From: a virus
Taxonomy: Duplodnaviria; Heunggongvirae; Uroviricota; Caudoviricetes
Virus record (IMG/VR): IMGVR_UViG_2574180160_000007
Reading direction: 5' to 3' (one strand)
Length of the DNA stretch: 34,744 nt
Of the stretch, positions 11,094 to 11,435 are shown piece after piece. Positions within the stretch are counted from its first letter, which is position 1; each line of letters opens with the position of its first letter. Below the pieces are notes generated by a model that had not been told where the DNA came from, made no database searches, and saw only the letters and a program-made list of their open reading frames with translations. Position numbers and translations under genes: made by a program.

Positions 11094-11197
11094 ACAGCCT
11101 TCCCCTGAATAAATTAACCGCCACTTGCCATTCCGTACAGAAGTCGGATATCCTTCGCCCGAAAAGCATGAAACACATTTCTGCCATGCTAAAGAGA

Positions 11198-11227
11198 AAC
11201 CCCGGTATCAGCAGATACCGGGGTTTT
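11198..11227. terminator. Perfect 13-bp-stem hairpin in the I-J intergenic region (bidirectional terminator-like)
   Basis: AAACCCCGGTATC-AGCA-GATACCGGGGTTT flanked by T-rich sequence on both strands. Confidence 0.45.
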
Positions 11228-11298
11228 CTTTCATGCCCACCGATAATCCTGTTGGTTAAAACCGGTAATGGCATAAAAATTCTGAATATCTTCACATT

Positions 11299-11326
11299 TT
11301 CACACACTGACTGTGGCGCTTATAAT
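11299..11326 (+). promoter_or_regulatory. Sigma70-like promoter antisense to the late operon
   Basis: TTCACA - 16 nt - TATAAT on the plus strand inside the I-J intergenic spacer. Confidence 0.3.
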
Positions 11327-11332
11327 TTCGCT

Positions 11333-11430
11333 GCGTTAGTGTTTTTTTGCCCGAGTAACAAAAACAACTCCTTAACATTGATCTTCATTTGTCTGTCCCC
11401 GCAGCTCCGCGATCACTGCGGGATTTTTTT
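11333..11430 (+). ncRNA. Candidate small RNA of about 100 nt (promoter to terminator), antisense orientation in the I-J spacer
   Basis: Predicted promoter at 11299-11326 followed about 70 nt later by a plus-strand intrinsic terminator (CCCCGCAG-loop-CTGCGGG plus TTTTTTT) at about 11397-11430; no convincing ORF. Confidence 0.2.
11397..11430 (+). terminator. Plus-strand Rho-independent terminator at the 3' side of gene I
   Basis: 7-bp GC-rich stem CCCGCAG/CTGCGGG with 11-nt loop followed by ATTTTTTTA. Confidence 0.5.
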
Positions 11431-11435
11431 ATGTT

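Follow-up and report, generated by a model that had tools for sequence, protein, structure and literature searches.

Five prophage-encoded small RNAs (sRNAs) were discovered in enteropathogenic Escherichia coli (EPEC) E2348/69 by RIL-seq (ligation and sequencing of interacting RNAs), and verified on Northern blots (Pearl Mizrahi et al. 2021, PMC8550237). Among them, PasB (pathogenicity-associated sRNA B) was mapped to NC_011601 1466343..1466261 on the minus strand, as an 83-nt RNA of prophage PP6 (PMC8550237 Table S6). Here we analysed a viral stretch of 34,744 nucleotides (IMG/VR record IMGVR_UViG_2574180160_000007, Caudoviricetes; hereafter the window), focusing on the 342-bp intergenic spacer between the tail genes I and J (11094..11435, delimited from the list of open reading frames (ORFs) and the sequence). 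To judge from its sequence, the plus-strand promoter-terminator unit in this spacer is the gene for PasB, and is an already-known element, not a new one.

Other described phage RNAs share some of the features of PasB. PasA, PasC, PasD and STnc100, from the study that discovered PasB, are likewise Hfq-dependent RNAs of lambdoid prophages, but lie near the lysis/Q region, by sialate esterase and holin genes, and are unrelated in sequence; homologues in enterohaemorrhagic E. coli (EHEC) were listed for PasA and PasD, and none for PasB (PMC8550237). AgvB and AsxR of EHEC prophages (Tree et al. 2014; RF02702, RF02703) resemble PasB in being prophage-encoded, Hfq-bound and multicopy, with conserved 3' and variable 5' ends, whereas they differ in their length of 51-60 nt, in their location 3' of PR' in the Q-S moron site, and in acting as sponges for host GcvB and FnrS. 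We rejected an identity of the unit with either RNA, given their location 3' of PR', the unrelated sequence and the lack of an Rfam match at the gathering threshold or at E <= 10. Finally, lambda OOP is, like PasB, a short RNA antisense to a phage operon that runs from its own promoter to an intrinsic terminator, but OOP acts in cis via RNase III and extends over the end of the cII coding region, whereas PasB lies clear of any gene and has numerous partners in trans.

Identity and expression of the unit

The lambdoid late operon occupies the minus strand of the window (the late strand), with gene I at 11436-12116 (stop at 11436) and gene J at 7620-11093 (start at 11093), and the unit lies on the plus strand, antisense to it. 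The published Northern probe for PasB, AATCCCGCAGTGATCGCGGAGCT (PMC8550237 Table S6), is the exact reverse complement of window positions 11403-11425. The mature 83-nt form can be placed by homology at 11348..11430 on the plus strand, where the window is identical to E2348/69 PasB at 82 of 83 nucleotides; the sole mismatch, at nucleotide 27, sets an A in the window (11374) against a C in E2348/69. The original prediction, made from the letters of this DNA, had proposed a plus-strand sRNA at this place, and the exact probe match and the 82/83 identity bear it out.

Near-perfect alignment to the E2348/69 locus extends from ~11273 to 11435, and E2348/69 PasB has the same neighbours as the window unit, gpJ and the gene for a tail assembly protein, which both run antisense to it. 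The two loci share the gene, its promoter, its terminator and the I/gpJ position, but are unrelated upstream of the promoter, where E2348/69 has a 240-bp spacer with a late-strand terminator and the window a 342-bp spacer with a 13-bp hairpin. In a survey of the distribution of PasB, this RNA and a variant named PasB-2 are reported to differ at position 27, the E2348/69 allele not being the commonest, and the same study gives IS009 as a typical Rfam match in PasB flanks (Zhu, Shabalina and Storz, bioRxiv 2026). The window allele (A27) is probably PasB-2, and an IS009 match lies within 10 kb of PasB, in agreement with the reported flanks. This match is full-length (225 bits; 3459-3657, minus strand), and is situated ~7.5 kb from PasB at the tail-fibre end of the prophage. 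An Rfam search of the spacer itself, both at the gathering threshold and permissively (E <= 10), returned no family, the weak matches (SSRC34_2, STnc310, CopA etc.) only reflecting the spacer hairpins; the literature, searched for an sRNA encoded between the genes for "tail assembly protein I" and "host specificity protein J", likewise yielded none.

PasB is among the abundant Hfq-bound sRNAs of E2348/69, in which an RNA of ~83 nt was seen by Northern blot, RNA-seq and RIL-seq (PMC8550237). Its level fell in the delta-hfq mutant (log2 fold change -6.8 in the activating and -2.4 in the non-activating condition), and it took part in 37 RIL-seq interactions, as the second RNA in 99-100% of chimeras, i.e. 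in the sRNA position (PMC8550237). The RNAs that it contacts on Hfq include both virulence mRNAs (ler, perB, bfp, map, espC) and core mRNAs (napF, tolC, ftsZ, hflX), and its level is greater in the non-activating condition (lysogeny broth (LB), overnight, static) than in Dulbecco's modified Eagle's medium (DMEM) (PMC8550237). Our preferred reading, to which we assign a probability of roughly 0.85, is that PasB is an Hfq-dependent trans-acting sRNA of lambdoid prophages, made from the I-J spacer antisense to the late operon.

Motif scan and folding identified an intrinsic terminator at 11398..11430 on the plus strand, with a 7-bp stem (CCCGCAG, 11398-11404; CTGCGGG, 11416-11422), an 11-nt loop and a U7 tail (T7 at 11424-11430), the T run being found on the plus strand only. 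It begins 72 nt after the -10 box, as had been anticipated (a clean terminator ~70 nt past the promoter). The stem is near-invariant across variants of the unit, with one compensatory G-C to A-U change. The terminator hairpin and its U7 tail would provide the expected Hfq-binding 3' end, and a stretch of AAC/AAA repeats read from the sequence at 11357..11368 on the plus strand (AACAAAAACAAC), which is kept as an A-rich stretch across variants, is a possible distal-face Hfq binding motif.

Promoter region and predicted pairing sites

The sigma-70 promoter that the original prediction had read as TTCACA-16-TATAAT was recovered by consensus scan on the plus strand at 11299..11326 (P1; -35 TTCACA at 11299-11304, a 16-nt spacer, -10 TATAAT at 11321-11326), with 11 of 12 consensus positions matched, and was also found in the E2348/69 spacer. 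The -10 box is kept in all variants as TATAAT, AATAAT, GATAAT or TATCAT; the -35 box of P1 is not kept. Initiation from P1 is predicted at ~11333, giving a 98-nt primary transcript with a possible 5' leader, GCGUUAGUGUUUUUU (11333..11347, plus strand), that contains the family-wide GCGTTA block, conserved in 53 distinct transcripts, and a U run. Of the transcript originally proposed from ~11333 to 11430, the sRNA reading and the 3' end hold, but the published 5' end is at 11348. This end may reflect either post-transcriptional trimming of the leader (GCGUUAGUG followed by the U run), or a second start at ~11349 served by an alternative -10 box, TAGTGT, at 11337-11342.

Upstream of P1, consensus scan and conservation identified a CRP-like 22-mer, AATTCTGAATATCTTCACATTT (11278..11299), whose core TCTGA-N6-TCACA (11281-11296) matches the consensus at 9 of 10 positions; nowhere else in the 34.7-kb window does TGTGA-N6-TCACA occur with one mismatch or fewer. 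Among BLAST homologues the half-sites do not vary, the two variable positions both falling in the N6 spacer. Neither Pearl Mizrahi 2021 nor Zhu et al. 2026 mentions a promoter or CRP for PasB. We also compared PasB with the sRNA Spf. Since Spf is repressed by CRP, a pattern opposite to that of Spf is expected of PasB if cAMP-CRP activates it. In one study Spf was higher in DMEM and PasB higher in LB, i.e. their condition patterns were opposite (PMC8550237). Transcription of PasB would probably rely on the conserved -10 box and the conserved upstream CRP-like site, which fits the higher PasB level in LB at stationary phase than in DMEM; nevertheless, we put forward CRP control of PasB as a tentative proposal, with the odds somewhat against it.

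To locate possible pairing sites, we used 13 partner fragments, chosen among the strongest RIL-seq partners of Table S3 and taken from the E2348/69 chromosome and plasmid pMAR2. Unconstrained RNAduplex runs of PasB against the target fragments were uninformative, yielding long, loop-rich duplexes no better than those of shuffled sequences, after which we sought seeds by scanning for exact complements and with 14-nt windows. The best of the 14-nt windows along PasB concentrate at nucleotides 16-37, and two seed motifs, CCUUCACA and AUCUUCAU, are predicted to base-pair where ribosomes bind in leading RIL-seq partners (napF, tolC, yijD, caiF). Seed 1 (11368..11380, plus strand; PasB nucleotides 21-33) is anti-Shine-Dalgarno-like, reads CUCCUUAACAUUG in the window and CUCCUUCACAUUG in E2348/69, and has nucleotide 27 (11374) within it. 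Seed 2 (AUCUUCAU; 11381..11388, plus strand; nucleotides 34-41) lies in UAAUCUUCRU, the best conserved of the internal blocks in the family. With seed 1 of the E2348/69 allele, predicted duplexes extend over 14 bp in napF (-20 kcal/mol), 11 bp in fabR/yijD and 9 bp each in caiF and ler. The motif TGTGAAG occurs in 4 of the 13 partner fragments, compared to ~0.2 expected (binomial P ~2e-5), and the seed 2 complement, ATGAAGA, is found in four of them also (tolC, hflX, ler, bfpI; binomial P ~2e-5).

The predicted sites, numbered relative to the start codon, are at -8..+5 in napF, -17..-7 in yijD, +3..+11 in caiF, and -3..+6 in tolC, where seed 2 covers the start codon; a further predicted site, in the PP9 gene E2348C_RS14200, falls on the Shine-Dalgarno sequence (-13..-8). 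Both seeds are predicted to be single-stranded, and would pair at the ribosome-binding or start-codon regions of napF, tolC, yijD and caiF, blocking translation; this placement at translation-initiation regions would correspond to the usual pattern for a ribosome-blocking Hfq-dependent sRNA. The seeds expected of an Hfq-dependent trans-acting sRNA were found with the E2348/69 allele, whereas the window allele is mismatched in seed 1: A27 in place of C27 falls in the middle of this seed, with a predicted pairing loss of up to 6.4 kcal/mol with napF, fabR, caiF and ler. Because the only difference between the window RNA and that of E2348/69 sits at the centre of seed 1, the seed 1 targets of the window allele probably differ from those of E2348/69, and seed 2 is unchanged.

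A number of points weigh against our reading, or against parts of it. The published 5' end, which derives from RNA-seq coverage, is 22 nt past the TATAAT box. Taking -41.5 or -61.5 and equivalent positions as the canonical centres of activating CRP sites, the CRP-like site is non-canonically placed with respect to P1 (centre -44.5; ~-60.5 from the alternative start at 11349), and control by FNR or sigma-S would also explain the condition pattern of PasB. The expression evidence concerns the E2348/69 allele, one base from that of the window, and RNAalifold supports the terminator stem alone, which barely varies, so that covariation adds little. The seeds were derived post hoc, their motifs having been picked after viewing 13 self-chosen fragments of strong partners, and the RIL-seq partners ftsZ, galE and gshA have no convincing PasB site. 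The original authors reported no common target motif for PasB, which has no entry in their Table S7 (PMC8550237), and the putative seed of Zhu et al. 2026 is placed just upstream of the terminator. Finally, the accessible literature holds no PasB target validated by reporter assay, neither PasB paper (PMC8550237; Zhu et al. 2026) having reporter or knockout data on a regulatory effect of PasB.

PasB-type units and the mosaic I-J spacer

Of 5426 complete E. coli genomes, 1813 were found by a sensitive search to carry a PasB-related unit, at up to 11 places in a single genome; carriers thus make up about one third of the total and include ST131 and O157 strains. None of the copies listed had been annotated by the Prokaryotic Genome Annotation Pipeline (PGAP), so that recognising this widespread gene should improve prophage annotation. 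From a pattern scan of IMG/VR and of BLAST-derived loci we assembled 135 units in 61 distinct versions, measuring 143-157 nt from promoter block to terminator. These have in common, in order, the upstream block AAAWTTCTGAA-NN-TCTTCACATTT, the -10 box, GCGTTA and a U run, the A-rich stretch, CUCC(U/A)U, UAAUCUUCRU and the terminator, and the stretches between the blocks are variable, with indels that are not multiples of three. Conservation of promoter, terminator and internal blocks across 61 variants indicates that the promoter-terminator unit is more than a chance arrangement. Diverged units (VT1-Sakai, 1720a-02, PhiR5_1, PhiR12_1 and others) are 70-80% identical, and have the same slot and orientation, the CRP-like block, the -10 box, GCGTTA and the U run, UAAUCUUCRU and the CCCGCAG/CTGCGGG terminator with its U7 tail, but differ in their variable 5' bodies and, in some spacers, in the presence of tandem units or sodC cargo.

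Two tandem PasB-like units were found in several spacers (loci L010, at 330-650, L024, L065, L079 and L099); the first unit ("type B") is distinct in body and in terminator (CTCCCG...CGGGAG). In locus L020, a Cu/Zn superoxide dismutase gene, sodC (327-855, minus strand; Pfam Sod_Cu, 3.9e-32), lies in the I-J spacer antisense to the late operon, adjoining a PasB remnant without a promoter. From the tandem units and the sodC insertion, therefore, the I-J gap behaves as a cargo slot that is read antisense to the late operon. In locus L070, the sequence just past the PasB upstream block turns into the apparent start of an insertion-sequence transposase gene.

The gap of ~340 bp is real, and the premise of the original prediction that I and J are normally adjacent holds in so far as the gap of lambda is small (60 bp), but the gap is not a peculiarity of this phage. 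In E. coli lambdoid and Shiga toxin (Stx) prophages, the I-J gap is routinely 240-420 bp with a PasB-type unit inside, so that the "insert" is common rather than specific to the window. A protein I search of genome contigs returned only 12 loci; in the distant Enterobacter, Pantoea and Rahnella relatives (protein I ~40% identical), the gap is ~5-55 bp and the PasB unit is not present. At 100% identity, the 342-bp spacer occurs in prophages of the PPompW type and across hundreds of E. coli genomes.

The left part of this spacer is a block of 175 bp (11094..11268) that is near-invariant and PPompW-type-specific, occupying the place of a shorter segment that, in 240-bp spacers, holds the late-strand terminator. 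Of 1451 E. coli records, 1442 have it at 99% identity or more, and diverged copies are absent; among phage records, it was found in PPompW-like phages only. A second copy suggested by the phage records ("two places") proved to be the hairpin matching itself on the opposite strand. Because the block stays 100% identical even beside PasB bodies that are only ~75% identical, the spacer is a mosaic.

The left block holds a perfect 13-bp hairpin (11197..11226, both strands; arms 11197-11209 and 11214-11226, 13 nt with 100% complementarity and a 4-nt loop). This hairpin is present as the original prediction had described it, but is not part of the sRNA unit, belonging to a separate block upstream of the PasB promoter, 70 nt from the -35 box. 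Folds that include it score z = -6.9 to -7.3 against shuffled sequences, and its flanking tails read TTTCTCTTT on the late strand and TTTTCTTTC on the plus strand. With an A tract at one flank and a T tract at the other, it resembles a bidirectional intrinsic terminator; the terminator scan did not flag it on the late strand of the window. A second predicted hairpin (11232..11275, minus strand) directly precedes it on the late strand, the minus-strand fold of 11190-11275 having an energy of -42.4 kcal/mol (z = -6.85), and is without comparative support since the block is invariant. One window-type spacer (locus L120) has lost the 13-bp hairpin by a clean deletion between TTTCT repeats.

At the equivalent position, the commoner 240-bp spacers have a hairpin of unrelated sequence, CAGGCACCC...GGGTGCCTG, with TTGTTTTT after it on the late strand, and this one the scan does flag as a terminator. 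It has 10 pairs and the tail TGTTTTCTGG in the VT1-Sakai spacer, and nine pairs and the tail TGTTTTTGTG in that of E2348/69; terminators of this kind lie at 469-492 in locus L002 and 1931-1954 in L001, and likewise in many IMG/VR loci. A compensatory C-G to T-A change was identified among variants. A predicted terminator on the late strand thus recurs between the PasB promoter and J, and may block non-antiterminated transcription into J. An intrinsic terminator is unexpected inside a tail-gene operon, and our consensus scan identified no minus-strand promoter of at least 9/12 that could use it.

Alternative readings of the spacer

A trans-acting PasB has to be weighed against an RNA that acts mainly in cis, pairing with the I-J spacer of the late mRNA and causing RNase III cleavage or changed termination, which would tune J or silence leaky late transcription in lysogens. 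Its full complementarity to the spacer of the polycistronic late mRNA, its constant position, always antisense to the late operon at this single place, and the retention of a late-strand terminator beside it in otherwise different spacers would all be compatible with this explanation. However, PasB (11348-11430) overlaps no coding sequence or ribosome-binding site, ending 5 nt from the I stop and 255 nt from the J start, so that it would not occlude ribosome binding as a cis-antisense RNA, and it has many trans partners in RIL-seq. Its body also diverges fast between prophages, as is expected for trans targets, although this is not decisive, since a cis target co-varies automatically. We therefore regard a mainly cis-acting PasB as unlikely.

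The left block might alternatively encode a second plus-strand sRNA of ~70 nt, running from a weak promoter-like site, TTGCCA-18-TATCCT (11125..11154, plus strand; 9/12 in the consensus scan), to the 13-bp hairpin. The predicted transcript (11160-11232) would consist of a 5' hairpin and a terminator-like hairpin (z = -7.3), and the block is near-invariant in ~1450 genomes. This invariance, given the lack of diverged copies, signifies recent common descent and is silent on selection; moreover, the promoter is weak, the fold score comes almost wholly from the 13-bp hairpin, the hairpin is cleanly lost in L120, and no Rfam family matches, making a second sRNA distinctly improbable. It is still harder to accept that the hairpins merely punctuate the late operon (as stabilisers of its mRNA, or as terminators that Q-modified polymerase passes), with an accidental promoter match and no functional RNA. 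Late-strand terminator-like hairpins are indeed conserved in these spacers, but an RNA has been seen from a near-identical locus by Northern blot, RNA-seq and RIL-seq, the Ts of the PasB terminator are on the plus strand only, and the -10 box and upstream block are kept in 61 variants, leaving this explanation barely tenable.

A coding function fares worst of all. One plus-strand frame is open for 128 codons (11069-11455), through the spacer, two hairpins and the promoter, a 22-aa ORF (MKINVKELFLLLGQKNTNAAKL) is present on the late strand, and hypothetical proteins are annotated here in some phage records. Against this, the plus-strand frame is interrupted by stops in the closest variants (L007 and L008), indicating a chance ORF, variant indels are not multiples of three, and the late-strand ATG is kept in only 67 of 128 units, with ACG in about half. 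Neither ORF is conserved among variants, upholding the earlier statement that the spacer has no credible ORF, and we consider a small protein exceedingly improbable.

Beyond the two papers on PasB, our analysis contributes the two seeds, the conserved CRP-like site, and the late-strand terminator between the PasB promoter and J, together with hypotheses that can be tested: two seeds with named sites, the C27/A27 polymorphism, possible cAMP-CRP control and the terminator before J. It is conceivable, though we think it rather doubtful, that the I-J spacer, instead of being a simple moron, forms a conserved regulatory cassette in two parts, combining a seed-varying sRNA gene under CRP-like control with a late-strand terminator that makes J and downstream cargo strictly dependent on Q antitermination. 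In such a cassette, the seed would differ between prophages through single-base alleles (nucleotide 27), diverged bodies and tandem copies, and a poly-lysogen would carry a set of related sRNAs with differing target ranges. In the present window, the terminator part would have been replaced by the invariant 175-bp block, which itself may encode a further small RNA.

We additionally noted several minor features of the I-J loci and of the window. Short contigs labelled Streptomyces flavalbus, Parendozoicomonas haliclonae and Clostridiales metagenome-assembled genome (MAG) contain E. coli-type prophage I-J DNA, with 90-98% protein identity, and a 44.6-kb contig labelled Geobacteraceae MAG has an Enterobacter-like I-J locus; these loci (L011, L013, L015 and L020) probably represent contamination or mis-binning. 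At the end of the window opposite to the IS009 match lie a match to the STnc100 sRNA (33465-33654, minus strand; 132 bits) and a tRNA gene (34354-34427, minus strand). STnc100 has been proposed as a relative of PasD (Zhu, Shabalina and Storz, bioRxiv 2026), and with PasB and the STnc100 match both present in the window, this prophage has at least two described sRNA genes.

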